Assembly: GCA_007123335.1 (NCBI GenBank)
Contig: SKLG01000440.1
Span: 1 to 14,196 of the forward strand
DNA from: Anaerolineae bacterium
Lineage (GTDB): Bacteria > Chloroflexota > Anaerolineae > UBA1429
Direction: 5' to 3'
Length of the DNA stretch: 14,196 nt
In this document: one piece after another, positions 1-13,669 of the stretch
Numbering within the stretch: the stretch's first letter is position 1
Layout of the letters: each line of letters begins with the position of its first letter
The notes under the pieces: generated by a model
The model's input: only the letters and a program-made list of their open reading frames with translations
What the model was told of the DNA's origin: nothing
Database searches by the model: none
Made by a program: the position numbers and the translations under genes

Positions 1-143
1 CGCCACTGGGCGAGGTGGATATTCGCTACGACCGGGGGCTGCTGCTACGCTTTACCCTGCCCGCCGGCGCCTATGCCAGCAACGTGCTCGACGAGCTGAT
101 CAAGGCCGACCAGCACCATGAAAAAGATGCCGACCCCGCTTGA
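1..143 (+). CDS. 3' end of an upstream gene (partial, start outside window). C-terminal peptide ...RFTLPAGAYASNVLDELIKADQHHEKDADPA*, stop TGA at 141-143. Resembles the C-terminal F-x-LP-x-G-x-YA(T/S)-x-v-L-(R/D)-EL motif of tRNA pseudouridine synthase TruD.
   Basis: In-frame translation of 3..143 with no stops. The motif match rests on remembered family features only. The stop lies in the loop of the terminator hairpin. Confidence 0.4.
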   Translation, partial: PLGEVDIRYDRGLLLRFTLPAGAYASNVLDELIKADQHHEKDADPA

Positions 144-164
144 TATCCACAAGCGGGGGTCGGC
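121..164 (-). terminator. Rho-independent terminator downstream of tatC. Stem gccgaccccgcttg (129-142) pairs with caagcgggggtcggc (150-164) with one bulge. On the minus-strand RNA it is followed by AUCUUUUU (plus 121-128).
   Basis: A ~14-bp GC-rich inverted repeat with a 7-nt loop and a U-tract, seen directly. It lies 19 nt past the tatC stop. On the plus strand the tail (AUUCUC) is only weakly U-rich, so bidirectional function for the upstream plus-strand gene is uncertain. Confidence 0.5.
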
Positions 165-182
165 ATTCTCACGCGAGACCGG

Positions 183-959
183 TTACTGCTGTATGACGTT
201 GTCGGGCAACTGGCCGGTCTCGTCAGACATCCCCGAGCGAGCCACGCGAGCCAGCACCACGCCCAGCTCGTAGAGCAAATAGAGCGGGATCATGACGATG
301 AACATGTTGATCGGGTCGGGCGTGGGCGTGACAAAGGCGGCGATGATAGAGGTCGCCACGATGGCATATCTGCGCGCTTTGGCCAGCATTTCGGCGGTGA
401 CGATATTCAGCTTGGCCAGGAAGAACATGAGCAAGGGCGTCTGGAAGACGATGCCCATCCAGAATAGGACGCGGGTAACAAAGTCGATATAGTTATCCAA
501 CGTCCACTGGTTCTGGACGATATGGCTCAAAAATCCTTGCATGAAGGTGATGGCCACCGGCAGCATGATGAGCGCGGCAAAGGCTACACCCCCTGAAAAA
601 CAGATCGTCACGCCAGGCAAGAGAAAATAGAGATACTTTTTCTCATGGGGTAGCAAGCCAGGCAAGATAAAGCGAATGACCTGATACACGATGACCGGCA
701 TCGATAGCATGGTACCGCCGATGAGGGCGATGCGGAAATAGACCACAAAGGTCTCGGTCGGATAGATCGTCTGCGGAATGGATCCCCCCAGCGGCAGAAT
801 CAAGATTTGCAGTGCTTGCGGTGTAAAGGCGACACTAATCGCTGTAGCGATCACAAAGGCGATGGACGCCTTGAAGAGTCGTCCGCGCAGCTCCGCAAGG
901 TGTTCCCATATGGTCAGTTCTTGGTCGGTAGCCGTATTAGTAGCCATCTCAGTAGCCAT
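183..959 (-). CDS. tatC: Twin-arginine translocase subunit TatC
   Basis: 258-aa polytopic membrane protein. The N-terminus contains ELTIWEHLAELRGRL and the overall hydrophobic pattern fits TatC. ATG at 959 is preceded by GAGGAA 5 nt upstream, 2 nt after the tatA stop, suggesting translational coupling. Confidence 0.9.
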   Translation of the reverse strand: MATEMATNTATDQELTIWEHLAELRGRLFKASIAFVIATAISVAFTPQALQILILPLGGSIPQTIYPTETFVVYFRIALIGGTMLSMPVIVYQVIRFILPGLLPHEKKYLYFLLPGVTICFSGGVAFAALIMLPVAITFMQGFLSHIVQNQWTLDNYIDFVTRVLFWMGIVFQTPLLMFFLAKLNIVTAEMLAKARRYAIVATSIIAAFVTPTPDPINMFIVMIPLYLLYELGVVLARVARSGMSDETGQLPDNVIQQ

Positions 960-961
960 GA

Positions 962-1762
962 TTATTCCTCACTCCGAGAGACGCCGGTGCTCTCCGCCTG
1001 TGGCTCGACAGTATCATGATCTGCCGTCTCGACATCCTCAGGCTGCGCCTCGGCGCCATTACCGTCCTGTGGAATGACATTGGCACCTGCGTCCTCTTGA
1101 GCACTCGAAGCAGTATCAGTAATAGGATTATCGTCGTCCTCATCATCGTTCACCACCATGGGCCCCATGACGGTGGGCTCGATGAGTTCAATATCTACAT
1201 CCTCCGGCTCGCGATCCTCAGGCACCAGCAGAGCAGTGTGAATGAGAACCGGGGCCACATGTTCCATTTGTGCAGACGAGGGAGCAAAAGGCGATGCCTC
1301 TTGGGTCGTCTTGCTATCCAGCTCGCCCTCTAGAAGGGGAGCGCCAGCGCTCACCATAGCTCGAGCCGGGGCAGGGAATCTCGATCGTCCGGTTGTGCCC
1401 TGGACCTCGGCAGCGGCGCCTTCGATGGCCTGCCCGATCTGGCCGGCCTCCTGCTGAAGTTCGGTAGCCGTGCCTTCCAGCACATTGCCGATCTGCTGGG
1501 CTTCTTCCTGGACCTCGGTGGCCGTGCCTTGCAGCACGTCGCCGAGCTCGCCGGCTTCGCGCTTGGCCTCATCCAGAGCTTCTTGAAGCTCCTCAAGGCT
1601 CAGCGCCTCGCGAAACTCTTGAGACATGCTGTCGGTCTGCTGACGCAACTTGGCCACCATGCGCCCCAGTTGCCCGGCCAGCTCAACCATCTTTTCTGGG
1701 CCGACAACCAGTGCGGTGATCACCAAGATCGCAATGATCTCGCCAGTACCTATTCCAAACAT
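962..1762 (-). CDS. tatA: TatA/TatB-family Sec-independent translocase protein with a long atypical C-terminal extension (266 aa). The core MFGIGTGEIIAILVITALVVGPEKM is followed by three 18-aa repeats and a D/E-rich tail.
   Basis: MFGIG...GPEK is the TatA/B N-terminal TM and hinge signature. I place the start at ATG 1762 (GGGAGG 12 nt upstream), not at the TTG of the track ORF at 1786. The gene sits directly upstream of tatC. Confidence 0.8.
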   Translation of the reverse strand: MFGIGTGEIIAILVITALVVGPEKMVELAGQLGRMVAKLRQQTDSMSQEFREALSLEELQEALDEAKREAGELGDVLQGTATEVQEEAQQIGNVLEGTATELQQEAGQIGQAIEGAAAEVQGTTGRSRFPAPARAMVSAGAPLLEGELDSKTTQEASPFAPSSAQMEHVAPVLIHTALLVPEDREPEDVDIELIEPTVMGPMVVNDDEDDDNPITDTASSAQEDAGANVIPQDGNGAEAQPEDVETADHDTVEPQAESTGVSRSEE

Positions 1763-1845
1763 TAGCTGATGGGACCTCCCGATCAACTCTGATGGTTCAA
1801 CGATAAAGGTGTATCATGTGGTGCATGGCGCAGGTCCCTTGATAG

Positions 1846-2313
1846 TCAGTCGCCGCCGGGGCTCGGAGCGTGCTGAGAGGTCTTTTCGCGGTCCAAATGC
1901 GCGAGGATGCTCTGTTGATGGGTCATCAAAGTACCCAGGACACCATTCACAAAGCGCCCCGAACTCTCGCTGCCAAAAAGCTTGGCCAACTCGACGGCCT
2001 CATTGATGGCAACCTTGGACGGTGTTTCTTCACTAAAAGCGAGCTCAAAAGTCGCCAAACGCAAAATAGCCCGATCCACTGGCGCAATCTGGTCGATAGG
2101 CCATTCGGGTGCAATACGTTCCAGGATGGCATCCAGCGTTTCGAGGTGCTGCAACACGCCATCCACAAGGCGACGGCAGAACGCTTCGCCCTCGGCGGCC
2201 AATTGCTGATCCGTCAGCCGCTCGCGAAGGGCCTTGCCCGGATGATGTCCGGTCACGTCCACCTCAAAGAGCACCTGAAAGGCCATGATCCGCGCTCGTC
2301 GTCTGACCTTCAC
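1846..2313 (-). CDS. nusB: Transcription antitermination factor NusB
   Basis: N-terminal RRRARIMAFQVLFEVD matches the NusB RRxARExAlQaLy motif. The internal ATG falls inside that motif, so the start is GTG at 2313, with GGGGTGA 4-5 nt upstream. Length 155 aa. Confidence 0.85.
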   Translation of the reverse strand: MKVRRRARIMAFQVLFEVDVTGHHPGKALRERLTDQQLAAEGEAFCRRLVDGVLQHLETLDAILERIAPEWPIDQIAPVDRAILRLATFELAFSEETPSKVAINEAVELAKLFGSESSGRFVNGVLGTLMTHQQSILAHLDREKTSQHAPSPGGD

Positions 2314-2334
2314 CGATTCACCCCGCTCGCCACG

Positions 2335-2688
2335 CTATTCTTCGTTCTCAATCAAGGTTTCAACATCCTCGATGTGAACATTCACGGCGAGCACCGGCAT
2401 GCCGATCATATCTTGAATGGCCCGTGATACCCTCGCCTGGATCTCACGCCCCAGCTCATAGAGGTTGACGTTCTTGGCGGCGGTGATGTGCAGATCCACC
2501 GAGACGGCATCATCCACGACCTGGATGCGCACGCCATCTCCGGCGCTCTTGCCTTTGAGCCAACGATTCACATCGCTGGGCAGGGCACGGTGCATGGCCA
2601 CAACTCCTGACACGGCCAGAGTCGCCAAACGGGCGCTGGTGGCCAGCACCTGAGGCGAAATGCGCACGGCTCCCAGTCTGTTTGCCAT
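2335..2688 (-). CDS. Asp23/Gls24 family (alkaline shock protein 23-like) protein
   Basis: MANRLGAVRISPQVLATSARLATLAVSGVV... is typical of the Asp23/DUF322 family. ATG at 2688 has GGGAGG 6 nt upstream. The Asp23-nusB adjacency is conserved in Firmicutes and Chloroflexi. Confidence 0.8.
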   Translation of the reverse strand: MANRLGAVRISPQVLATSARLATLAVSGVVAMHRALPSDVNRWLKGKSAGDGVRIQVVDDAVSVDLHITAAKNVNLYELGREIQARVSRAIQDMIGMPVLAVNVHIEDVETLIENEE

Positions 2689-2763
2689 GTTGTGCCTCCC
2701 GCTTATGCTGGCAACGCGCACAAGGCCCGATGCCGGGCCTGTGGCCTCGTCGCCGGGAAATGA

Positions 2764-2794
2764 CAAGGGCCGCGTCGAGCATCAGACGCCCTTG
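2764..2794 (-). terminator. Possible attenuator or weak terminator hairpin between rpmF and the Asp23 gene. The 7-bp stem CAAGGGC/GCCCTTG has a 17-nt loop and is followed on the minus RNA by UCAUUUCCC.
   Basis: Inverted repeat seen directly. The U-tract is weak and the loop is long, so this is low confidence. Confidence 0.25.
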
Positions 2795-2817
2795 CACGAG
2801 CCATCTGTATCGCGACC

Positions 2818-3003
2818 CTATTCGTTCTCGACCTCAAGCACCTGCACGCCAGCATAGCTGCCACAGGAGGGGCATACATGATGGGGCATATGCATCTCGC
2901 GGCATGACTGGCACACGACCAACTTGGTCGGCTTGAGGGCGTGATGGGCACGTCGGCGCCGCGTACGACCCCTGGACTGTTTTCTTTTAGGTAGAGGTGT
3001 CAT
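2818..3003 (-). CDS. rpmF: 50S ribosomal protein L32
   Basis: 61 aa with MTPLPKRKQSRGRTRRRRAHHAL and a CxxC...CxxC zinc-ribbon remnant (CQSC...CPSC). AAAGGAA lies 9 nt upstream of ATG 3003. It sits immediately downstream of yceD, as in the conserved yceD-rpmF unit. Confidence 0.9.
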   Translation of the reverse strand: MTPLPKRKQSRGRTRRRRAHHALKPTKLVVCQSCREMHMPHHVCPSCGSYAGVQVLEVENE

Positions 3004-3046
3004 GGTTCAGTTCCTTTCAATGAGCATTCCCCTCAAAGGGGTTGAT

Positions 3047-3583
3047 TTATTCTTGATCTGGCTGGTCCAACAACTGGGCCAGGGCCGAGAGCCGAGGGTC
3101 GATCACATCCCTTTGGCAACCACAAGGTTCAAGGTTCAAGTTCTTGCCGCAAATAGGACAAAGCCCTTCGCAATCCGAACGGCACAAACCTGGCGAAGTG
3201 CCAGCCACAATGACATACTGACGCAAGACTTCGCTCATATCCAGCATATGGTGCTCGTCGATGATCAGCTCGGGCTCATCCTCGTCGGTAATGGGCAACG
3301 TGGCGCCGGTATCAATATCGATGGAAGGGATAAACTCTTCTTCGATCTCAAACTCGACCTCTGTAGCCATCGGCTCCAGGCAACGCCGGCATATCTGCTG
3401 GATGTTCATTTGAGCATTGCCCGTCACCAGAATACCTTTAGGGGTGCGCACAAAGAGCAACTCGCCCTCTACATGGGTAACCCCTGGATTGAGCGCGTCG
3501 ATGTCGCGAAGGTCGCCCGATATCGTACGCCGACGCGACGCGCCAACGCCCTCTTTGAGCAATTGAGCGACATTATATATCAT
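3047..3583 (-). CDS. yceD: YceD/DUF177 family protein (large ribosomal subunit accumulation protein)
   Basis: 178 aa with an acidic middle and a C-terminal Cys cluster (CRSDCEGLCPICGKNLNLEPCGC) typical of DUF177. AGAGG lies 5 nt upstream of ATG 3583. Position upstream of rpmF is conserved. Confidence 0.85.
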   Translation of the reverse strand: MIYNVAQLLKEGVGASRRRTISGDLRDIDALNPGVTHVEGELLFVRTPKGILVTGNAQMNIQQICRRCLEPMATEVEFEIEEEFIPSIDIDTGATLPITDEDEPELIIDEHHMLDMSEVLRQYVIVAGTSPGLCRSDCEGLCPICGKNLNLEPCGCQRDVIDPRLSALAQLLDQPDQE

Positions 3584-3609
3584 GGTAACCTCTTGTTAAC
3601 GTTCTAGTT

Positions 3610-3645
3610 TCCCTACAATTATATCTGTAGGGGGCATAGATGTCA
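3610..3645 (-). promoter_or_regulatory. Consensus sigma70-type promoter for yceD-rpmF on the minus strand. TTGACA is at 3645..3640, followed by a 17-nt spacer, TATAAT at 3622..3617 and a T7 tract upstream of -35. A perfect 7-bp inverted repeat CCCTACA/TGTAGGG (plus 3610-3616 and 3626-3632) brackets the -10.
   Basis: Reverse complement of 3601-3660 reads tggctactcaTTTTTTTGACAtctatgccccctacagaTATAATtgtagggaaactagaa. Both hexamers match the consensus exactly with 17-bp spacing. The dyad overlaps the -10 and the predicted +1 region. Confidence 0.55.
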
Positions 3646-3841
3646 AAAAAATGAGTAGCCAGCCCAACGTAACGTCGCTCTCTGGCCAAAAGAGAGCACA
3701 CGGTGCCTTTCTAAGGCAATAGTGCGCACTGTTTCGGCACCCCTGCTATCTTGGTGCCTCTGGCACGGGGGCGTTCGCCCGGCTGCTCTGGTCCGAGACG
3801 GTGCCCTGGCGCCGATTCTAACCATAAAGGAGTTCTCGTCT

Positions 3842-4537
3842 GTGTCCAAACAAGAGATGTCGCCTAGCAGGTACCGTCGTCTGTGGCGCGGCCTCAAGGC
3901 CACCGCGCCGCTGGCTCTGGGCGTGGCCCCCTTTGGCGTCGCCTTTGGCGCCGTGGCCGATGGGGCCATGGCCGGCTGGCAGGCGATGTTCATGTCCTCG
4001 ACGGTCTTTAGCGGCACCGCCCAGTTCGTCTGCGCCAGCATGCTGGCGCAGGGCGCGACCGCCGTGCCCATCGTGCTCACCGGCGTGCTGATCAACATGC
4101 GCATGTTGCTGATGAGCGCCGCCATCACCCCCCACGTCAAGGATGCGCGCCCGGCGCTCTATCCGCTGCTGGCCCATCTGCTCACCGACGAGAGCTTTGC
4201 CGTGAGCATGGCCGAGTTTGAGGCGCGCTCCGGCGACCCCTGGTTTTACGTCGGCTCGGGGTTGGCCATCTGGGGCATCTGGCAGCCGGCGACACTGATC
4301 GGGCTGTTCTTTGGGGCCGCCATTCCTCAGGGCGTGGGCCTCGAGTTCGCCCTGCCGGCCAGCCTCATCGTGCTCCTCTTTTTGCTGCTGCGCGATCGCC
4401 TTCAGGTGGCCACCGCGATGGGTGCCGCGCTGCTCTGTATCGCGCTGCGCCCGCTGGTGTCAGGCACCTGGAGCGCCACCGTCGCCACACTGGCGGCGGC
4501 CACCCTGGCCATGGTCCTCAAGGGAGCGCGGCGATGA
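3842..4537 (+). CDS. azlC: AzlC-family branched-chain amino acid transport permease
   Basis: Hydrophobic protein with LALGVAPFGVAFGAVA...FMSSTVFSGTAQFV, typical of AzlC. The start is probably GTG 3842 (AAGGAG 9 nt upstream) or ATG 3857. The track ORF start at 3722 is very likely non-coding. Confidence 0.8.
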   Translation: MSKQEMSPSRYRRLWRGLKATAPLALGVAPFGVAFGAVADGAMAGWQAMFMSSTVFSGTAQFVCASMLAQGATAVPIVLTGVLINMRMLLMSAAITPHVKDARPALYPLLAHLLTDESFAVSMAEFEARSGDPWFYVGSGLAIWGIWQPATLIGLFFGAAIPQGVGLEFALPASLIVLLFLLLRDRLQVATAMGAALLCIALRPLVSGTWSATVATLAAATLAMVLKGARR

Positions 4538-4884
4538 GCGCGGCGACAAGCGCTGGCACGCACACGGTAACGTGGCTGATCGTAGCGCTGGCGGCGGGCA
4601 CGCTGATCTGGCGCCTGCTACCGCTGGCGGCGCTCAGCCGGACGAGCCTGCCGCGCTGGGCGGAGGAATGGCTGCGGCTGGTGCCGGGAGCCATCCTCGC
4701 CGCATCGCTGGCCCAGAGCCTGCTGGTGCAGGAGGAGCAACTGACCCTCACCTGGCGCAACCCTTATCTCCTCGCCGCTCTGCCGGCGTTTTTGGTGGCC
4801 TGGCGCACCCGCAACGTGCTGCTGACCATGGCGTGCGGCATGGCCGGCTTTGTGGCCTCCAACTACTTCTTGCGGCTCCTCTGA
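4534..4884 (+). CDS. azlD: AzlD-family branched-chain amino acid transport protein
   Basis: 116-aa small hydrophobic protein. Its ATG overlaps the azlC stop (ATGA at 4534-4537), and the azlC-azlD pairing is conserved. Confidence 0.75.
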   Translation: MSAATSAGTHTVTWLIVALAAGTLIWRLLPLAALSRTSLPRWAEEWLRLVPGAILAASLAQSLLVQEEQLTLTWRNPYLLAALPAFLVAWRTRNVLLTMACGMAGFVASNYFLRLL

Positions 4885-4892
4885 GCCAGCCC

Positions 4893-5792
4893 CTACTCGA
4901 TAGGCACAGCGTGCCTCTCAACATAATCCGACACGCGCCGGTCGGGGCGCCGCGTCAAGTAATAGAACGCCTCGGCGTATTCCAGCCCATGGGCCTCGCC
5001 GAGGGCGCGGTATTCGTCGAGCTGAAAGAGGCGGATATAGGCGCGGTCGGCCTCCTCATCGCTGCCGTCGAGGGCGGGCAGGCGCAAGCCACGGGCGGCC
5101 AGCTCGTCGCGCAGGCGTGAGCCCTGGGAGCCACCGGGCCCTTGCGACTTGTTGGCGCTGATGGCGGCGACCTTTTGCGCCATCCAGGGGCCGATATCGA
5201 CGACGCGGTTGTAGGGCTGCCCCTCTCTGGCCACCCAGTAGTAACGCTCGGTTACCGATTTGGGCTTGAGCCCGGCGGCCAGGTGTTCGGGATAGTCCTT
5301 GTCCATCCCCGCCATCCAACACGCCGCCTCTACCGCCTGGCCGGTGATGGTGTGGTCGGGGTTCTCCTCGTCCTGGCCCCAGGGGTTAAAGGTGAACACG
5401 GTATCCACCTGGAGCAGGCGAAATAAAAAGATCAGCCGCGCGCGCAGCTCCAGCGGTGACGCCTCATCGAGGCGATGGTTGCGGTAGCTCAGGTGAAAGA
5501 TCCCCTTGAACCCCAACGCCTGGGCCAACGTCTCTACCTCACGCTCGTTACTGAGCACCGTCTCGCCGATGCTGGGCGTGGGGCCGCACTTTTCGTCGTT
5601 GGTGGTCTGGATCAGGTAGGCGTCATAGCCCTCGGCGATGAGCTTGGCCACCGCGCCGGCGCAGAAAAAGGGGATGTCGTCGGCGTGAGCCTGCACGGCG
5701 GCCAGCACCTTGCCGCGATGGGGCTGCCCCTGGGCAGGGCGCTCGATGACCACCTGCCCCTGCGACACGCCATGGTGCTCGATACGTCCCAT
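4893..5792 (-). CDS. PIG-L/LmbE family N-acetylglucosaminyl deacetylase with N- and C-terminal extensions
   Basis: KVLAAVQAHADDIPFFCAG...DAYLIQTTNDE matches the LmbE AHPDDE-type zinc-binding N-terminal motif. ATG at 5792 has AAGGAG 9 nt upstream, embedded in the dinB 3' end with a 4-nt gap, consistent with translational coupling. Confidence 0.8.
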   Translation of the reverse strand: MGRIEHHGVSQGQVVIERPAQGQPHRGKVLAAVQAHADDIPFFCAGAVAKLIAEGYDAYLIQTTNDEKCGPTPSIGETVLSNEREVETLAQALGFKGIFHLSYRNHRLDEASPLELRARLIFLFRLLQVDTVFTFNPWGQDEENPDHTITGQAVEAACWMAGMDKDYPEHLAAGLKPKSVTERYYWVAREGQPYNRVVDIGPWMAQKVAAISANKSQGPGGSQGSRLRDELAARGLRLPALDGSDEEADRAYIRLFQLDEYRALGEAHGLEYAEAFYYLTRRPDRRVSDYVERHAVPIE

Positions 5793-5796
5793 AATC

Positions 5797-7020
5797 CTAT
5801 ACTCCTTCCGTCGGGTCCGGCTCCTCTGGCCGGTGTTGACGGCGCAACAGCGCCGCGCGGGTGATGGCCTCGTCGCCAAAGCGGTCGCGGATCTCGTCCA
5901 ACGCCTGATTCAGGCGGATGCGCCGCTGGTCGTCGCGCTCAAAGAGGGTGAGCTGGTAGCCGGCCTCGTCCAGCAGCCCATCCACCCCCACTCCCAGCAG
6001 ACGCAGCGGGCGCCCGGCCGTCCAATGGGCATCCAGGAGACGTCGGGCCGCTTCATAGATAGCCTCGGGCTGATCGGTGGGTTGCGCCAGGGTCTCCTGG
6101 CGGGTCTGGGTGACGAAATCAGGATCGCGCAGCTTGATGCGCACCGTCTGCGCCACCCAGCCGCGACGGCGCAAGCGTGCGGCCACCGCCTCGCTCATGC
6201 GCAGCATGGTGCGCTCCAAGAAGAGGCGGTCGGCGACATCGTGGGCAAAGGTCTGTTCCTGGCTGATGGACCGCCGCTCGCTACCTGGCTGGACGGGGGA
6301 ATCATCCAGCCCCTGAGCGCGACGCCACAGGCCGCGACCGTGACGCTCGCCGAGGGTGCGCACGGCGCGCTCCTCGTCCCAGGCGGCCAGATCGCCAATG
6401 GTGGCGATGCCCAACGCCCGCAGCCGGCGCCCGGTGACCTGACCCACGCCCCACAGTGTCTCAATGGGCCGTGGCGCCAAAAAGGCGGCCTCCTCCCCCT
6501 GGGGCACGAGCACCAGCCCCTGAGGTTTGCCGGCGTCGCAGGCGATCTTGGCCACCAGGCGATTGGCGGCGATGCCCACCGAGATGGGCAGCCCCTGCTC
6601 TTCGCGCACACGGCGCTGAATGAGCCGTCCGATGGCCTCGGGCGGCCCCCAGAGGCGCTCGCAGCCGGTCACATCGAGAAAGGCCTCGTCGATGGAAATC
6701 TGCTGCACCGCCGGGGTGATCTCGTAGAGGATATCCATCACGGCGTGGGAGTGCCTGCTATACTCTTGATGGCGCCCCGGGACGACGATGGCCTGAGGAC
6801 AGAGGCGCAGCGCCTGGGCCATGGGCATGGCCGAGCGCACGCCGTAGGCCCGCGCGGCATACGACGCAGAGGAGACCACGCCGCGACCCTCGGGCCGCCC
6901 ACCGACGACCAGCGGCTTGCCGCGCAGCGCCGGGTTGAGCAGTTCCTCCACCGAGGCGAAAAAGGCATCGAGGTCGACGTGCATGATCCAGCACGCAACC
7001 GCAGGCCCGCCAGTGGTCAC
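5797..7020 (-). CDS. dinB: DNA polymerase IV (Y-family translesion polymerase DinB)
   Basis: N-terminal IMHVDLDAFFASVEELL..RGKPLVVGG is the Y-family catalytic motif I, and the thumb and little-finger regions are recognisable. GTG at 7020 has GAGGTGG upstream. ATG at 6984 has no SD and sits inside the conserved I-L/M-H-V-D segment. Confidence 0.85.
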   Translation of the reverse strand: MTTGGPAVACWIMHVDLDAFFASVEELLNPALRGKPLVVGGRPEGRGVVSSASYAARAYGVRSAMPMAQALRLCPQAIVVPGRHQEYSRHSHAVMDILYEITPAVQQISIDEAFLDVTGCERLWGPPEAIGRLIQRRVREEQGLPISVGIAANRLVAKIACDAGKPQGLVLVPQGEEAAFLAPRPIETLWGVGQVTGRRLRALGIATIGDLAAWDEERAVRTLGERHGRGLWRRAQGLDDSPVQPGSERRSISQEQTFAHDVADRLFLERTMLRMSEAVAARLRRRGWVAQTVRIKLRDPDFVTQTRQETLAQPTDQPEAIYEAARRLLDAHWTAGRPLRLLGVGVDGLLDEAGYQLTLFERDDQRRIRLNQALDEIRDRFGDEAITRAALLRRQHRPEEPDPTEGV

Positions 7021-7038
7021 ACAGCCACCTCGACGTGT

Positions 7039-8286
7039 TTACCCATCCTCAGGCTCAAAGACGGTCAGCTCGACCTGTAGGAACTCAAAAACGGCGTCGG
7101 GCAGGTCGGCATCGGCGCGATAGCGATAGTCGATGATCCGCGCCTCCAAGCGCAGAGAGAGGGTCTCCAACTCGATGACCGCGCCGGGCCGGGCCACGAT
7201 CAGCTCGCCCTTTTCCTCCAACCGCTGGCGCAGTTCGTCGTCGTCCAGGACCAGATCGCTGACGATGACTTTGGAGACGGTGCGGATATCGCCCTTGTCA
7301 AAGAGCCAGACCTCAAACGCGTCGATCTGCTGCCCCCCCTCATCGACCTCGAGGATATCGGCCACGCTGAGGCCGCACTCGCCGAGAAACTCGCCGTCGC
7401 TCGACTCGATGCTATAGGATACATCGAGGTCATCGTCGCCATACTGATATTCGGCCTCGAAACGGACGACGGCATTATCTGGCAACAAAGGCGTGGGCCG
7501 ACTGGGCGAGGTCGCAACGGGGCTCACCGTCGGCCGATCCTCCTGCTGGTCCAACGCCTCCCAGGCATACTCGGCCTCGTCCTCCTCCACAGCGTGTATA
7601 ACCTGGGGAGCTGCAGGGGATGAGGACGCAGGCGGCGCCTGCTGCGGGGGAAAGGGCGGCGGCGCGTGGCGCTGCTCCTCAAAGCGATCCTCGGCAACCG
7701 GCTCGTTGGCGCGGGGCGTGGTCGCGCTGTATCCCGGCCCTCGGGTGGCGTGGTAAGGGGGACTCTGCGCCGTGGCCATGCTGCCACTGATGATCGTTAC
7801 CGCTAACCAGATGATGAGGACCAACCCGATGAAAAGGGCCAGGATCGAGCCGGCGATCAGCAAGCCATTGGACATCCCCGGCGGGATGACGCTCGCCGGC
7901 GGGCGCACCGCCACCTCCTCTCCGGTGGGCTGCGGCAAATCGAGGGACTGGGCCATGCGCCGCAGACGCAGCGCACCGGCGGTGTCCTCGGCGCGATCGC
8001 GGTTGACGGCGGCCTGCTCGATGAGGTTGGCCACCCATTGCCAATCGGTCTGCTCGTCGATCAGAGCCGAGAGCCGCTGACGGGCCACGTCTACGTCTCC
8101 GGTGACGGCGAGGGAGTCAGAGGCCATGATCACCCAGGAGAACTGGTGTTGCAGACGCATATCGGAGGGGTCGGTGTCGTACCAGGTGACGGGCCACACC
8201 CGCCAGCCCATAAAGAGGCCGACACCGATACCGACGAGGATCGATAACGCAATGATGGGCAAGACCAATCTGCGCGCACCGTTCAT
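7039..8286 (-). CDS. Hypothetical two-TM membrane protein (415 aa). It has an N-terminal TM, a ~110-aa extracytoplasmic loop, a second TM, a Pro-rich linker and a ~150-aa acidic C-terminal domain. It is the first gene of an operon with dinB.
   Basis: ATG at 8286 with AAAGGAGAGG 7 nt upstream. Predicted TM segments are LVLPIIALSILVGIGVGLFMGW and LLIAGSILALFIGLVLIIWLAVTIISG. Codon usage matches the host. No family recognised. Confidence 0.6.
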   Translation of the reverse strand: MNGARRLVLPIIALSILVGIGVGLFMGWRVWPVTWYDTDPSDMRLQHQFSWVIMASDSLAVTGDVDVARQRLSALIDEQTDWQWVANLIEQAAVNRDRAEDTAGALRLRRMAQSLDLPQPTGEEVAVRPPASVIPPGMSNGLLIAGSILALFIGLVLIIWLAVTIISGSMATAQSPPYHATRGPGYSATTPRANEPVAEDRFEEQRHAPPPFPPQQAPPASSSPAAPQVIHAVEEDEAEYAWEALDQQEDRPTVSPVATSPSRPTPLLPDNAVVRFEAEYQYGDDDLDVSYSIESSDGEFLGECGLSVADILEVDEGGQQIDAFEVWLFDKGDIRTVSKVIVSDLVLDDDELRQRLEEKGELIVARPGAVIELETLSLRLEARIIDYRYRADADLPDAVFEFLQVELTVFEPEDG

Positions 8287-8380
8287 GTAACGCCTCTCCT
8301 TTCGTCAGCCCCCTTTTGGGCGGTGGGACCAGCGGCGATCCTGGCAAGCCATGCCATCGGAGCGACCGTGTTGGCGCATT

Positions 8381-8409
8381 CTACTATTAGGGCCACGGCT
8401 TTTCAATCT
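8381..8409 (-). promoter_or_regulatory. Candidate sigma70 promoter for the hypothetical-dinB-PIG-L operon. TTGAAA is at 8409..8404, followed by a 17-nt spacer and TAGAAT at 8386..8381.
   Basis: Reverse complement reads TTGAAAagccgtggccctaatagTAGAATgcgcc. The -10 lies ~95 nt upstream of ATG 8286. Confidence 0.45.
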
Positions 8410-8433
8410 TGTTGTCACTGGAGTGTAATCGCT

Positions 8434-8461
8434 TTGAGCTTTGGGTGCAAAGTGGTATAAT
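8434..8461 (+). promoter_or_regulatory. Sigma70 promoter with extended -10 driving the small ORF, and antisense transcription into the SPFH gene. TTGAGC is at 8434-8439, followed by a 14-nt spacer, TG at 8453-8454 and TATAAT at 8456-8461.
   Basis: The sequence ...gctTTGAGCtttgggtgcaaagTGgTATAATggag gives a perfect TGnTATAAT. It is arranged back-to-back with the minus-strand operon promoter ~25 bp away. Confidence 0.5.
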
Positions 8462-8513
8462 GGAGACAGAACATATGTGCGCACGGAATCATGAGCGCAT
8501 GGGAGGATTCGCG

Positions 8514-8762
8514 ATGTATTGGAATAACGGCCCACGTAGTGAGACATACCTTCGCGCAGATCTTGCGGACATCCTCAAAGCCATCGCCCGCGCCGGGGCT
8601 GGACCGACGCGAAGCAGCATTACCCTTCGGGAGGCGGATTACGCCGACGGATTTCGGGCGGCCATTGAGGCTATGGCTGCTGCCCTTGGGTTGCCCGTCG
8701 ATCTGCCAGCGCCTAGAAAGCGGGTACAACAGAAGGATTTGAGATTGCCGTCAGGACGGTGA
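8514..8762 (+). CDS. Small hypothetical protein (82 aa; MYWNNGPRSETYLRADLADILKAIARAG...) in the low-GC island. It has no TM segment and no recognised family. An alternative start is ATG 8475 (95 aa).
   Basis: GGGAGG lies 7 nt upstream of ATG 8514, and the extended -10 promoter is ~50 nt upstream. The ORF converges on the SPFH gene, with the 3' ends overlapping by 12 nt (8751-8762). Coding status is not proven; the transcript could act mainly as an antisense RNA. Confidence 0.45.
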   Translation: MYWNNGPRSETYLRADLADILKAIARAGAGPTRSSITLREADYADGFRAAIEAMAAALGLPVDLPAPRKRVQQKDLRLPSGR

Positions 8763-9848
8763 GAGGCCCACATATCTACGCAAAGCCATCAAAGCCTGCA
8801 CTACGTCGGCAGTGAGTGGATAGCTGGCAGTCCGTGGATCATGAGCAAGGCATTCTAGGATCCGACGCAATACCTCTCGTTGCATATCGGCATCAGACAT
8901 CTTCATTTCTCGAGCGATGCGGTAGGCATCTGCGATGACAGACAGCGTGTCGCGGTAAGTGCTCGCCTTCGCTAGCTCCATGTCACTGCCAATTCTCGCC
9001 CAATTCGCAGCCTGAAGCAGCCTGTCATCCGGCTGCACATCGAGTACGGAGACGCGGCTGACTCGAATACCATAGGTATTGAGTCTGGCGTTAGCATTCG
9101 CTCGCACTTGCTGGCTCAAAGCATCGACGGATGCGGGTCCGAGGATGCCGTCGAGCCTATAGTTAACCACGGCCTGACGTAGGCTTCGCTCAATCTCCTC
9201 TTGAACAGCCTTTTTCCATTCCGGCATCTCGGTGCACATTCTGAGGATCATGTTCCGTTCAGCGGTTGCCATCGGTATCTCGCCACGAGCGGTCTTGGGC
9301 GATACCGCTATGCCATAGGTTACCGAGAGTTCCACCTGCGTGGGGATGCGTTCGGCGGTGAGAATGTGGTCGTAGGTCAGCGTCTCTTGGCAGGGCCGCA
9401 GATCGAATAGATGACGCACATATTCCCAAGCATCGGTATTGATAAAGCCCGGCCCGCTGACCCGCGTGTATCGAGCGCCCCGGTAAAAGACAGCAGCGCT
9501 ACAGCGCACAATCACAAAGCGAGGTCCAGTGATGGACGCATCGTCTACGTCATGCGGTAGGATTGTGTGGCCGTCTTCAATAATATGAACACCACGACTC
9601 AATCCGAGTAGCATCTTGATGATGGTACCAATGGCAATGGACGAACTCATTCCATAGAGCGGAGCTATGGTCGAGGCTAGAACTACAAGGCTCACAGCTG
9701 CTCCGGAGAGCAGACTTAACGTGATGATGACAAAGACATCCCGATCTGTAGGAGCCACAAGAAATATTCGCAGGAGCATATAGAGAGCTGCTAGCGCTAC
9801 TACCCCTATCAGAAGTCTTCTGATCGTCTGGAAATGAGCTTGTAGCAT
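8751..9848 (-). CDS. SPFH/band-7 (stomatin/prohibitin/HflKC-like) domain membrane protein, 365 aa. It has two N-terminal TM helices, an SPFH core and a C-terminal helical region. It is encoded in a low-GC island with foreign codon usage.
   Basis: Core segments RGARYTRVSGPGFINTDAWEYVRHLFDLRPCQETLTYDHILTAERIPTQVELSVTYGI and LDGILGPASVDALSQQVRANANARLNTYGIRVSRVSVLDVQPD match the SPFH pattern (rlG..r.l.PG.hf.iP..d.v..vDlR.q....v.T.D...v.vd..v.y.I ... ldell..R..i......l......GI.V..v.i.di.P). ATG at 9848 has GGGAGG 5 nt upstream. Codons such as CTA, ATA and AGA are frequent here, unlike in neighbouring genes. Confidence 0.75.
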   Translation of the reverse strand: MLQAHFQTIRRLLIGVVALAALYMLLRIFLVAPTDRDVFVIITLSLLSGAAVSLVVLASTIAPLYGMSSSIAIGTIIKMLLGLSRGVHIIEDGHTILPHDVDDASITGPRFVIVRCSAAVFYRGARYTRVSGPGFINTDAWEYVRHLFDLRPCQETLTYDHILTAERIPTQVELSVTYGIAVSPKTARGEIPMATAERNMILRMCTEMPEWKKAVQEEIERSLRQAVVNYRLDGILGPASVDALSQQVRANANARLNTYGIRVSRVSVLDVQPDDRLLQAANWARIGSDMELAKASTYRDTLSVIADAYRIAREMKMSDADMQREVLRRILECLAHDPRTASYPLTADVVQALMALRRYVGLSPS

Positions 9849-9915
9849 ATTGGCCTCCCGGAGTGGCTATTCGCAGACCAAAGAGGCGAGCATAGATCAG
9901 CAGTTCGATGGCAAT

Positions 9916-9944
9916 AGTATAATAGCAGCCCAGCCCGATAGCAA
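9916..9944 (-). promoter_or_regulatory. Candidate sigma70 promoter for the SPFH gene. TTGCTA is at 9944..9939, followed by a 17-nt spacer and TATACT at 9921..9916.
   Basis: Reverse complement reads gtgcTTGCTAtcgggctgggctgctatTATACTattgcc. The -10 lies ~68 nt upstream of ATG 9848. Confidence 0.4.
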
Positions 9945-9947
9945 GCA

Positions 9948-9972
9948 CTGCGTAAAGACGGCCTTTACGCAG
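9948..9972 (-). terminator. Perfect 10-bp inverted repeat CTGCGTAAAG-acggc-CTTTACGCAG overlapping the pepP stop codon (TAA, plus 9965-9967), located exactly at the island boundary. It may be a weak terminator for the pepP operon or an insertion-site scar.
   Basis: Seen directly. On the minus RNA the hairpin is followed by UGCUUGCUAUC, which is only moderately U-rich. Confidence 0.35.
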
Positions 9973-11056
9973 CGCCCGGCGTCGCCGATCCGGCCACCGG
10001 CACCTTCTCCACGGCGGTGAGCATCCGACATCCGCTCTCCTCCACCACCACCATGTCCTCGATGCGCACGCCGCCCCAGCCGGGGATATAGACGCCGGGC
10101 TCGACGGTGAGGACGCTGCCCGCCGGCAGGTCTCCCTCGGCCAAAAAGCTGGCCCGTGGCTCTTCATGGATGGCCAGGCCCACGCCGTGGCCCAGCCCGT
10201 GGCCGAACTGGCCCTCGTATCCGGCGGCATAGAGGATGCGCCGGGCGATGGCGTCGGCCTCCACGCCCGACATCCCGGCATGAATGCCCTCCTCGGCGGC
10301 GAGCTGGGCCTCGAGCACCTTGTCCCACACCTCGCGATAGCGGGCGTCGGCGCGGCCCACGCAAAAGGAGCGGGTGAGGTCCGAGCAGTAGCCGTCCACC
10401 ACGCAGCCCATGTCGATCACCACCGGATCGCCGAGCCCGATCTCGCGCCCGCCGGTGACGGCGTGGGCCATGGCGCCGTGCGGCCCCGAGGCGACGATGG
10501 TGGGGAAGGAGAGGCTCTCGGCGCCACGGGTGCGCATGGCCACCTCCAGCTCCCAGGCCACCTCGCGCTCGGTGAGGCCGGGGCGAATCCACTCCATGAT
10601 GTGGGCCATGGCCTCGTCGGCCAGGCGCACGGCGGCGTTGATGGCGGCGATCTCGTCGTCATCCTTGACCACCCGCAGCCCCTCGACGATGTTCTCGGTG
10701 GGATGCCATTCGATGGCGTCACCCAACGCCTCGCGCCAGCGATCATAGGTCTGCACCGTAACGGCGTGTCGCTCAAAGCCCAGCGTCCGGTATCCCCGCT
10801 GACGGACCAGCTCGGCCAGCGCCGCATGCGCCGCGCCGGTGACCTCGACCAGCGCGCACATGGGCGCCTGCTGGCGCACCTGCTCATAGTAGCGAAAATC
10901 GGTGAGCATCGAGGCCTGGGCCTCGTCGATGACCAACACCCCGGCCGAGCCGGTAAAGCCGCTGAGATAGCGACGGTTTTCGGGCTGGGTGATGATTAAC
11001 GCATCATAAGGCTGGGCGGCCATGATCTCGCGCAAGCGCGCCAGGCGATCGTTCAT
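9965..11056 (-). CDS. pepP: M24B family Xaa-Pro aminopeptidase (creatinase-like N-terminal domain plus pita-bread metallopeptidase domain)
   Basis: 363 aa. Metal-binding and catalytic motifs include DMGCVVDGYCSDLTRSF, GHGLGHGVGLAIHEEP and VLTVEPGVYIPGWGGVRIEDMVVV. The symbol pepP is from family resemblance only; PepQ is not excluded. Confidence 0.85.
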   Translation of the reverse strand: MNDRLARLREIMAAQPYDALIITQPENRRYLSGFTGSAGVLVIDEAQASMLTDFRYYEQVRQQAPMCALVEVTGAAHAALAELVRQRGYRTLGFERHAVTVQTYDRWREALGDAIEWHPTENIVEGLRVVKDDDEIAAINAAVRLADEAMAHIMEWIRPGLTEREVAWELEVAMRTRGAESLSFPTIVASGPHGAMAHAVTGGREIGLGDPVVIDMGCVVDGYCSDLTRSFCVGRADARYREVWDKVLEAQLAAEEGIHAGMSGVEADAIARRILYAAGYEGQFGHGLGHGVGLAIHEEPRASFLAEGDLPAGSVLTVEPGVYIPGWGGVRIEDMVVVEESGCRMLTAVEKVPVAGSATPGAA

Positions 11057-11086
11057 TGGGTTGCTCCGTTCATCGTGCTCGGCGGC

Positions 11087-11548
11087 TCACTCGCCGCGAA
11101 AGGGGACCTGAAGACGCTCCTCCTCGATCAGCGTGACGAGGATGCGCACGGTGCGCTCGACGACATCGCCACAGCGCTTCTCAGCCTCGGGCTGCGTATC
11201 GCGAAGCGGCTCGCAGATCGTCTCGCCAAACTCTTCCAGGAACTGCTCGCGGAATCGCTTGGCCAGAGCATAAACCCGCTCGTCGTCCTCTTTGGCCGAC
11301 ACACGGCCCCACAAGGCGCCGAGGAGCAACACACCCCCGGCCAGGGCGCCGCACAGCTCCAACCGACTGCCGCCCACGCCGCCGCCAAAGGTATCGCTGG
11401 CCCGCACCAGAACGTCGGGCAGAGGGTTCATATAGTGTTCGCCCACGGCGATCACCACCGACTCGGATCAATGGTGCCCGGCCAGATAGGCGTCCCTGGC
11501 CTTTGCGGACACCTCCTCGATCACGGCAACGCGCTCTTGGTCGGCCAT
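11087..11548 (-). CDS. C_GCAxxG_C_C family (putative redox-active) protein with an in-frame TGA at 11470..11468, at the position of the first conserved Cys. It is either a candidate selenoprotein (153 aa if TGA is read as Sec) or a nonsense-disrupted pseudogene.
   Basis: ATG at 11548 has AAGGAG 6 nt upstream and opens 26 codons (MADQERVAVIEEVSAKARDAYLAGHH), then TGA, then SESVVIAVGEHY...GGGVGGSRLELCGALAGG...ETICEP...KRCGDV in frame. GHH-[TGA]-SESVV.A.GE aligns with the family motif G-x-N-C-A-(Q/E)-S-V-l-x-A-f-x-E. The track ORF start, GTG 11458, has no SD. Confidence 0.6.
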
Positions 11549-11583
11549 CTTTTTCTCCTTTGATGAGATATACGGATGTACGA

Positions 11584-12975
11584 TTAGCCCATGTCGCTAC
11601 GGTAGACCAGGCCGGCTCCCGCCGCCGACTGACAGGGAAAGACGGTGGCCGTCAGCCCCGTGCGCTGCCGATAGCCTCGGGTGACCGCCTGGGCAAAGGC
11701 CGCGACCTGCTCCTGCGCCACCACGGCCACGATGCACCCGCCCCACCCGGCGCCGGTGAGCCGCGCGCCGACGGTTCCCGGCACCCCGTTGGCCAAATCC
11801 ACCAGCGCCTCGATCTCGGGGGTGCTGATCTCATAGTCGTCGCGGGCGCTGGCATGGGCTTGAGCGAGGAGCCGGCCAAAGGCGGCCATATCTCCCGCTT
11901 CTAGCGCCTCGACGCTGGCGAGAACGCGCCGGTTCTCGCTATGTACGTGGCGACAGCGACGCCGCACATAGAACCGATCGGTGTCGGGGGTGGCCGAGGT
12001 GGGTCCCGCCGGACCATCCAGAATGGTATCGGGATCGATGCCCAACCGCAACAGCTCATCGCGGTGGATCACCTCGGGCAGCAATGGCTCCAGCTCGGCC
12101 CAGGGCACCACCTGCACGTCGCGCAGGTGGGTGATCGACGCCTCCGGCTGATGCCGCTGCAACAGGCGCACGCCGATGCGCCCCTCGGCGACGCGCCGGT
12201 TAAAGAGCGGGCCGGTGTTGTGATGGCGCACACCGCTATCGACCACCAGCACCGCATAGCCCCCGGCGCCGATGGAGACATGGCGATAGTCATATGCGTT
12301 GGCGCCACCATCCGCACGCGGCCGGCAATCGAGAAAGAGGGCGTGGTCGCGGCGCGCCAGGATCGAGATGAACTGATCCATGATCCCGCCACGGGTGCCG
12401 ACATACCACTCGGCGCGCCCGCAGGCATCGGCCAGCTCTGGGCCGGCGAGATCGATATCGTTCAGCGCGACCAACGCCACGGCGGTGGCGACGGTCAGCG
12501 CCGAGGAGGAGGAGAGCCCGGCGCCGCGAGGCACCCCAAAAGGCGGCGCGCCGTCCACCAGGCCATCAAAGCCGCTCAAGCCGGGACCATATTCCTGCTC
12601 CAGCAACTGGGCCGGCCCCTGGGCATAGTTGGCCCAATCGCCGAGGCTCGCGCGGGGGATGTCCTGGGCGATATCGAAGCGCCTGTCGCCATAGCCCTCC
12701 TCGATGTTGCTCAGGCGCACCGCGCCGTCGTCGCGGGGGCGTGCCAGAAGCAGGACATCCTTGTCCAGCGCCATGGGCAGCACAAAGCCATGGTTATAAT
12801 CGGTGTGCTCGCCGATGAGATTCACCCGCCCCGGCGCATGAAAGACGCACACCTGGCCCGGCCCATAACGCTCCTTAAAGGCGTCCAGCGCCCGCCGATA
12901 GCGGGCAGCTTGCGCGGCCTCGGCAGCGGCGCCATAGGTCTGGCGCAAGGCAGAGATCATATCCATCGTCAGCAT
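11584..12975 (-). CDS. galK: Galactokinase (GHMP kinase family)
   Basis: PGRVNLIGEHTDYNHGFVLPMA is the galactokinase signature, and GAGLSSSSALTVA is the GHMP ATP-binding motif. ATG at 12975 has GGGAGG 6 nt upstream; the GTG at 12981 is too close to the SD. Confidence 0.85.
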   Translation of the reverse strand: MLTMDMISALRQTYGAAAEAAQAARYRRALDAFKERYGPGQVCVFHAPGRVNLIGEHTDYNHGFVLPMALDKDVLLLARPRDDGAVRLSNIEEGYGDRRFDIAQDIPRASLGDWANYAQGPAQLLEQEYGPGLSGFDGLVDGAPPFGVPRGAGLSSSSALTVATAVALVALNDIDLAGPELADACGRAEWYVGTRGGIMDQFISILARRDHALFLDCRPRADGGANAYDYRHVSIGAGGYAVLVVDSGVRHHNTGPLFNRRVAEGRIGVRLLQRHQPEASITHLRDVQVVPWAELEPLLPEVIHRDELLRLGIDPDTILDGPAGPTSATPDTDRFYVRRRCRHVHSENRRVLASVEALEAGDMAAFGRLLAQAHASARDDYEISTPEIEALVDLANGVPGTVGARLTGAGWGGCIVAVVAQEQVAAFAQAVTRGYRQRTGLTATVFPCQSAAGAGLVYRSDMG

Positions 12976-13012
12976 CGCCACCCTCCCTCACACGCGATCC
13001 GGGCGCTCCGCG

Positions 13013-13549
13013 CTATTCGAAAATGCCCACGCCATAGGCCTCCCCATCAGCGAGGCTATAGACCACGATGCGATCCGCCGAACCGCGCTCTAGCGAGGAG
13101 GGGATCTGAAACAAAAAGAACTCGGCGTCATAGGGGCGGTCCTCCAGCTCGATCAGGACGTGAGCAGGATCGTCCAGCTCATCGCCCTTGACGAGACGAA
13201 TGTCCGCTTGAGAACCTTTGCCGTCGTAGGTAAAGCCCTGTATAATCAGCGTTTGAAGCCCGGCGACGATCGCTTTGCCGGATACGCCATGCGCGCCGCT
13301 GAGGTGCGCGACGCTGCCCACCTGCCGAAAGGTCTCTTCCGGCGCCACCTCGTTGGGTGTGGGGAAGGGTGACGACGCGGGCCTATTGGCTTCTGCGTCC
13401 ACGGTGGCCGTCGGTGGAACGGTAGGCACCGGCGTCGCGGTGGGCTCGACGATCTGCGCCGCCGGGACGGGCGTCGGCGGAGTCGGAGGGCTGCAAGCAG
13501 ATAGCACTAGCAAGAACATGATCAGCATTAGGTGGGTGAACCGTTTCAT
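13013..13549 (-). CDS. Lipoprotein with a DM13 domain. Signal peptide MKRFTHLMLIMFLLVLSAC carries the lipobox LSAC, followed by a Pro/Thr-rich linker and a DM13-like C-terminal domain.
   Basis: ATG at 13549 has GGAG 6 nt upstream. Segment GSVAHLSGAHGVSGKAIVAGLQTLIIQGFTYDGKGSQADIRLVKGDEL resembles the DM13 domain. It is 37 nt upstream of galK, with the galK SD in the gap, so it is likely co-transcribed. Confidence 0.65.
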   Translation of the reverse strand: MKRFTHLMLIMFLLVLSACSPPTPPTPVPAAQIVEPTATPVPTVPPTATVDAEANRPASSPFPTPNEVAPEETFRQVGSVAHLSGAHGVSGKAIVAGLQTLIIQGFTYDGKGSQADIRLVKGDELDDPAHVLIELEDRPYDAEFFLFQIPSSLERGSADRIVVYSLADGEAYGVGIFE

Positions 13550-13669
13550 CCTCGGCTCCATTCGTCTATTAGGCGTCAACCGTCATCGATTATACCGGAA
13601 ACAGATCAGGCTTCCAATGAGCATAAAACGACACGCTCTTCGAGGGCGTGTGCCGAACAGGAATCGCGT

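Follow-up and report, generated by a model that had tools for sequence, protein, structure and literature searches.

We found that a gene on the minus strand of the window (the whole stretch of 14,196 nucleotides of Anaerolineae DNA that was analysed here) is very probably intact and encodes a cytoplasmic C-GCAxxG-C-C protein of about 153 residues, with selenocysteine (Sec) in place of the first conserved Cys (probability roughly 0.9). What doubt remains about the Sec reading stems from the Sec machinery of the source genome and the incorporation of selenium, both of which rest on inference. The family was first reported in 2007 (Zhang & Gladyshev, PMC1976440), from the Olavius algarvensis delta-1 symbiont, as a selenoprotein family named “putative redox protein”, and it is listed in reviews of prokaryotic selenoproteomes from 2022 (PMC9312934) and 2026 (PMC13188914), the latter of which gives it as forms 1 and 2 (examples: MGD8741185.1 and WP_012158890.1). 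Selenoproteins in Chloroflexi were reported as early as 2006. The window gene is a new, mis-annotated member of this already catalogued selenoprotein family; the catalogue entry lowers the novelty of the gene and leaves the correctness of the Sec call unaffected.

The reading frame comprises 153 codons, from an ATG at 11548..11546 to its own TGA stop at 11089..11087. A Shine-Dalgarno sequence (AAGGAG, 11560..11555) precedes the start codon with a spacer of 6 nt. This start, with its ribosome binding site, had been proposed in an earlier sequence-only reading of the window, which also named the TGA at 11470..11468 as the sole interruption of the frame. Direct reading of window 10900-11700 and translation confirmed both: the frame contains one internal stop, at codon 27, with the ATG 26 codons upstream of it, and the peptide around this codon reads AGHH-U-SESVVIAVGEHY. 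The features of the gene, all on the minus strand, are as follows:

11087..11548, minus strand: full CDS of the C-GCAxxG-C-C family selenoprotein, 153 codons (from translation, PF09719, TIGR01909 and alignments A1 and A5)
11555..11560, minus strand: Shine-Dalgarno sequence AAGGAG (read directly)
11468..11470, minus strand: in-frame TGA read as Sec (U27), replacing the first invariant Cys (Cys column in homologs)
11432..11458, minus strand: probable SECIS-type hairpin (from the MFE fold, the register, pairing and covariation in 34 distinct sequences, and synonymous-codon constraint)
11351..11353, minus strand: codon of Cys66, in the CGAxxG motif (ELCGALAGG)
11213..11215, minus strand: codon of Cys112, the third conserved Cys
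11171..11173, minus strand: codon of Cys126, the fourth conserved Cys

With Cys placed at codon 27, the translated protein matched the Pfam family PF09719 (C_GCAxxG_C_C) at 80.8 bits (cut-off 27; 1.1e-22) over profile positions 2-116 of 118, and TIGR01909, which NCBI names “C-GCAxxG-C-C family (seleno)protein”, at 69.2 bits (cut-off 47.4; 3.1e-19). The first protein search returned two groups of relatives: full-length Cys proteins of 148-153 residues, such as P0007 (AGHHCSEAV), and closer relatives (71-93% identity) which were all N-terminally truncated and began M/V-I-A-V-G. When aligned with full-length Cys homologs (alignments A1 and A5), the TGA stands in a column where Cys is invariant (GHH-U-SESV versus GHH-C-SEAV). 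The four-Cys signature is complete in the window protein, as U27, C66, C112 and C126 all stand on invariant columns. These alignments bear out the earlier placing of the TGA at the first conserved Cys of the family, for which a TGA outside that column had been named as a refutation, as well as the claim that the other three signature Cys are intact downstream. Two other families which include this domain were considered and rejected. The window protein scored 31.2 bits against the HUGP/GUXX-star fusion selenoprotein model NF045501 (cut-off 325), to which residues 10-116 are weakly similar, and 52.5 bits against the DVU_1555 family model NF045669 (cut-off 103), to which residues 23-143 are weakly similar. 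Since both scores lie far under the cut-offs and the protein is a single domain with no fusion partner, it belongs to neither.

We also compared codon 27 with the equivalent position in orthologs and in more distant homologs. The orthologs came from independent assemblies (NCBI, JGI, ENA and Logan) and represent six distinct contigs: L001/L002/L010 (Chloroflexota MAG GCA_014360745.1, 71% identity), L003, L004, L006, L008 and L009. All six carry TGA at the equivalent of codon 27, at 47-90% identity to the window protein, and upstream of the TGA each has an uninterrupted N-terminal extension which can be aligned and which starts at its own ATG, preceded by GGAG or AGGAG. A scan of genome contigs with the window protein alone confirmed no relative; with alignment A1 as the query, GTDB species representatives yielded 80 loci, and these together with the orthologs make up a set of 85 typed homologs. 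The Sec column holds TGA in 39 of the 85 and Cys in 46, and replacement of any other conserved Cys was found in none of them. With the TGA read through, every one of the 39 Sec forms gave a complete ORF of about 105-169 codons, the shortest of which (L083) ends at a contig edge.

A hairpin follows the TGA. Its core, GUGAUCGCC-GUG-GGCGAACAC, occupies 11455..11435 (arms 11455..11447 and 11443..11435, apical loop GUG at 11446..11444), and three lower pairs lengthen the stem to 11458/11432. The stem has 8 of 9 bp and an MFE of -14.5 kcal/mol; the remaining position, at 11452/11438, is an A/A mismatch which lies in a GAA codon, at a pair that is C-G, A-U or G-C in relatives. The fold, the GUG loop and the A/A mismatch had all been described correctly from the sequence, but the hairpin had been said to begin 10 nt after the UGA; the distance is 12 nt for the core and 9 nt for the extended stem. 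It had also been said to have the position and shape of a bacterial SECIS element. The published constraints on such elements are a loop of 3-9 nt, a loop sequence that opens with G and then G or U, a distance of 16-37 nt from the UGA and an MFE of -7.5 kcal/mol or lower (PMC13188914), and the window element agrees with all four (loop GUG, C-GUG-G fitting N1-G-[G|U]-N-N2, spacing 21 nt, MFE -14.5 kcal/mol). However, the window hairpin by itself is at chance level (z = -1.46), with 17 of 200 shuffled sequences folding equally well, so that its significance lies in the comparison with other sequences only. A search of window 11300-11600 for Rfam covariance models gave no match at E values up to 10; given how short and varied bacterial SECIS elements are, this carries little weight. 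Generic scanning for a TGA followed by a hairpin was rejected as a source of evidence because it is far too unspecific: with a loose SECIS-like filter, 10 TGA sites passed in the window, and 381 did so in related GC-rich loci totalling 1.28 Mb.

The hairpin of the Chloroflexota Sec forms lies in a fixed register after the UGA (5′ arm +15..+23, loop +24..+26, 3′ arm +27..+35) with the consensus GUGCUCGCC-GUG-GGCGAGCAC. An average of 7.8 of the 9 pairs form in this register in Sec forms, compared with 4.0 of 9 in Cys forms, from which the hairpin is mostly absent (Mann-Whitney: P ~ 1e-13, a test which ignores phylogeny). Across 34 distinct sequences, 89% of cells were paired, against 36-51% when the 3′ partner was slid by 1-3 columns, and four pairs were changed on both sides (for example C-G in 25, A-U in 5 and G-C in 2 sequences at one pair, and G-C in 30 and A-U in 2 at another). 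RNAalifold independently predicted the same 7-bp core. It should be noted that these pairing statistics are inflated by shared ancestry, as many of the sequences carry the consensus CUCGCC-GUG-GGCGAG, and that protein coding accounts for part of the conservation of the hairpin, which overlaps the conserved peptide L/I-A-V-G-E/G. The choice of synonymous codons was therefore compared between proteins which have the same L/I/V-A/T-V-G residues. The Ala codon of the 5′ arm is GCC in 31 of 31 Sec forms and in 2 of 6 Cys forms, and the Leu codon, among proteins with the same residue, is CTC in 21 of 24 Sec forms and 1 of 5 Cys forms. This bias is confined to the Sec forms, indicating that the synonymous sites are held by RNA pairing only where the UGA is present. 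The hairpin is probably a SECIS-type element, to which SelB would bind. Translation would then begin at the ATG at 11548, the UGA at codon 27 would be decoded as Sec with SelB bound to the hairpin, as in the established bacterial mechanism, and after the insertion of Sec translation would continue to the normal stop at 11089..11087.

The best-surviving alternative, although very unlikely, is that the TGA is a true stop and that the product is a protein of 122-123 residues which starts at an internal GTG (11458 or 11455) and lacks the first Cys, the upstream 26 codons being a leader or untranslated. Gene callers annotate these genes in exactly this way. To describe the public record we used a profile search with 21 read-through sequences, from which 120 close members were listed and which, together with earlier hits, gave 148 database homologs. 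Residue U occurs in none of the 148 homologs listed, 55 of the approximately 140-148 close homologs listed (P0001-P0268) begin just past the Sec column, and the Chloroflexota Sec forms are annotated publicly as a truncated “C_GCAxxG_C_C family protein” without U. Against such an internal start, the GTG has no Shine-Dalgarno sequence, a signal which the orthologs all possess at the upstream start (ATG with GGAG), and the peptide encoded upstream of the TGA can be aligned to the N-terminal helix which full-length Cys homologs possess. The shortened product would moreover miss an invariant residue of the family, and the internal start codons themselves sit within the conserved hairpin.

A slightly lower probability, and thus a highly unlikely one, belongs to selenium-free read-through of the UGA, either in a reassigned code in which UGA means Trp or Gly or by insertion of a near-cognate amino acid or Cys. 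A recoded genome would likewise show an in-frame TGA at a conserved position. However, 6 of the window's 16 plausible genes use TGA as their stop, including the C_GCAxxG_C_C gene itself, whose homologs also terminate at TGA and end at the same place. On this basis a reassigned code (tables 4 or 25) was rejected, and since TGA is an ordinary stop in the window, the recoding is local. What is recoded is precisely a column of invariant Cys, which makes a classic Sec/Cys pair, and a structure with the SECIS consensus follows the UGA. Even if Cys were inserted through Cys-tRNA(Sec) when selenium is scarce, the Sec machinery would be needed.

We return to the Sec reading and to the machinery which it implies. 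With E. coli SelA, SelB and SelD as tblastn queries, no selA, selB or selD homolog was found in the window or in loci L001-L089, and ARAGORN found no tRNA-Sec in the window or in 37 loci. No sel genes were found on the conspecific contigs L090-L095 (ENA ERZ27301261-3, Logan SRR490155 and SRR7083931, and NCBI GCA_007128385.1). A protein search with E. coli SelA gave 8000 matches, of which the best 120 were all from Enterobacteriaceae. On the conspecific contigs a Sec codon was also considered for the neighbouring peroxiredoxin gene and rejected, as this gene encodes an ordinary Cys BCP. A frame-aware version of the hairpin filter was also noisy, but it revealed full-length HdrA2 homologs with an in-frame TGA in Pelolinea submarina MO-CFX1 and in an Anaerolineae MAG:

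L025:2037-4589, plus strand: HdrA2-like gene (NF040770, 1033 bits) with TGA at 2679, Pelolinea submarina MO-CFX1
L024:2966-5497, plus strand: HdrA2-like gene (NF040770) with TGA at 3587, Anaerolineae MAG

In these genes the TGA lies inside FPTMDCSI-U-ILAPK and is followed by a G-loop hairpin, UUGACGC-GGC-GCGUCA, and both are located approximately 7 kb from the Cys-type C_GCAxxG_C_C gene of the same locus. The HdrA2-like gene appears to be a second type of selenoprotein in the class Anaerolineae, and such TGA-containing homologs lend support, at the level of the class, to the use of Sec.

The sequence-only reading had left two alternatives for the interrupted frame, a selenocysteine codon or a fresh pseudogene in which a single recent TGC-to-TGA change had killed the gene with no other decay, and had asked whether orthologs have TGC or TGA at this position and whether they are decaying. 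A lone internal stop in an otherwise perfect frame does resemble a very recent nonsense mutation. However, every ortholog fetched has TGA, down to 47% identity and from independent assemblies, as do the 39 Sec forms among the 85 homologs overall, and neither a frameshift nor a second stop was found in any ortholog. Over the 20 codons before the TGA, dN/dS was 0.17-0.66 in five of the six ortholog comparisons; in the sixth, with L008, the synonymous sites were saturated and gave no ratio. Downstream of the TGA, across 100 codons, the ratio was 0.10-0.44. Values on both sides of the TGA are thus mostly below 1, and the downstream synonymous codons are constrained towards keeping the hairpin. The conservation of the TGA, the constraint on the upstream frame, which in the orthologs has its own ATG and ribosome binding site, and the maintenance of the hairpin in register favour the Sec reading over a fresh pseudogene. 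The selenocysteine alternative was in this way supported, also by a hairpin which covaries and is constrained at the level of codons, and the pseudogene alternative was not borne out and is now scarcely credible. Sequencing or assembly error, which might be suspected in a metagenome-type contig, has a negligible probability, since at least eight independent samples and assemblies yielded contigs with the same codon and the 48-nt segment containing the UGA and hairpin is identical in three independent contigs (the window, L003 and L009); this replication across orthologs and independent assemblies excludes both an error and a freshly killed gene.

We also examined the genes on either side of the selenoprotein gene, which are arranged as follows:

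11584..12981, minus strand: galactokinase gene (Pfam GalKase_gal_bdg and GHMP kinase domains), upstream with a gap of 35 nt
9965..11056, minus strand: M24 Xaa-Pro peptidase gene (Pfam Peptidase_M24 and Creatinase_N), downstream with a gap of 30 nt

The galactokinase gene is found in the same order in L001, L003, L004 and L008 and is likely to be an operon partner of the C_GCAxxG_C_C gene; the M24 peptidase gene is found in the same order in L001, L003 and L008. Neither of these conserved neighbours offers a clue to function. Two further proteins are conserved beside the locus in relatives: a 415-residue protein whose N-terminus is hydrophobic and whose middle is rich in Pro and Ala (window 7039-8286, minus strand), which has no Pfam match, and a 188-residue lipoprotein-like protein (window 13013-13579, minus strand), which has no match and whose homolog in L008 gave a weak DM13 hit. 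The longest ORFs of the PIG-L deacetylase (4893-5879, minus strand) and DinB (5797-7020, minus strand) genes overlap by 83 nt. The calls for these genes on conspecific contigs are shorter (299 and 395 residues) and free of overlap, so that their true starts are probably internal. The G+C content alternates along the contig, being approximately 0.55-0.60 in window 1-4000 and 8001-10000 and 0.65-0.69 in 4001-8000 and 10001-13000.

The structure of the family was examined through a model of P0007, a Cys homolog which is 57-60% identical to the window protein. The model (md13a314d9b6b) is all-helical and forms a compact seven-helix bundle with a pLDDT of 86. A Foldseek search of the PDB with this model gave no match at E < 1, and a sequence search of the PDB with the family gave no match, so the fold predicted for this family appears to be structurally uncharacterised. 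U27, C66 of the CGAxxG motif, C112 and C126 would presumably form a redox-active or metal-binding centre. The substitution of Sec for Cys and the invariance of the four positions suggest that U27 may be the reactive residue of this four-residue centre, and the occurrence of Sec at the first Cys would point to residue 27 as the reactive centre of the family as a whole.

The Sec and Cys forms were intermixed within Chloroflexota in a neighbour-joining tree, which should be regarded as rough, and several Cys forms were nested among Sec forms. One Cys form, L036 (Aggregatilineales MAG JARKOQ010000177.1, match 3925-4338), has TGT at the Sec column and retains the full hairpin, CUGCUCGCC-GUG-GGCGAGCAC, with 8 of 9 pairs; this has the look of a fossil SECIS that outlasted a recent change from Sec to Cys. 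The nested Cys forms and the L036 hairpin together suggest repeated conversion of Sec to Cys within Chloroflexota. A joint reading of these observations, which we put forward tentatively and at somewhat less than even odds, is that in Chloroflexota, and mainly in Anaerolineae, the Sec form is ancestral and prevailing and has one near-invariant, lineage-specific SECIS (YCGCC-GUG-GGCGR) locked to the L/I-A-V-G-E/G peptide; that the Cys forms arose by repeated Sec-to-Cys conversion, sometimes leaving a fossil SECIS as in L036; and that the clade is hidden in databases as N-terminally truncated proteins. If the Sec form is indeed ancestral, this would single out residue 27 as the catalytic centre in a family which is widespread and has no solved relative.

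Knowledge of selenocysteine recoding itself is unchanged by the window gene. Its consequences concern annotation, as this gene and dozens of Chloroflexota orthologs are recorded as fragments of 111-127 residues without the likely catalytic residue, and the modelling of SECIS elements, for which the Chloroflexota hairpin is a clean case of joint constraint by RNA pairing and peptide and could seed a lineage-specific model.

The window protein shares with the catalogued C-GCAxxG-C-C selenoproteins the same domain, the four-Cys signature with CGAxxG, the replacement of a conserved Cys by Sec and, directly after the UGA, a SECIS hairpin whose apical loop contains a G. The published accounts consulted here make no mention of the lineage of the window gene (Chloroflexota, mostly Anaerolineae MAGs). 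The comparison with the published forms 1 and 2 was made at the level of the family listing. The Clostridiales members found here do share Sec at the first-Cys column with the window protein: three Clostridial Sec forms (L078, L081 and L085, from Eubacteriales/Clostridiales MAGs) have TGA at this column, use another hairpin (GUUGCU-AGGY-GGCAAC) and branch separately from the others in the rough tree. The Chloroflexota hairpin resembles the SECIS elements of the E. coli fdhF/fdnG type and the bSECISearch consensus (Zhang & Gladyshev 2005, as given in PMC13188914, Fig. 2A) in being a stem-loop within the coding sequence directly 3′ of the UGA. It has no sequence similarity to the E. coli elements, however, and is unusually uniform, in a stretch which also encodes the conserved peptide. 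With the HdrA-type genes of Anaerolineae, which appear to be selenoprotein genes, the window gene has in common a UGA at a conserved Cys, a G-loop hairpin and the class in which it occurs, but HdrA is an unrelated family with a different hairpin, and the genomes which carry it hold the Cys form of the C-GCAxxG-C-C protein.
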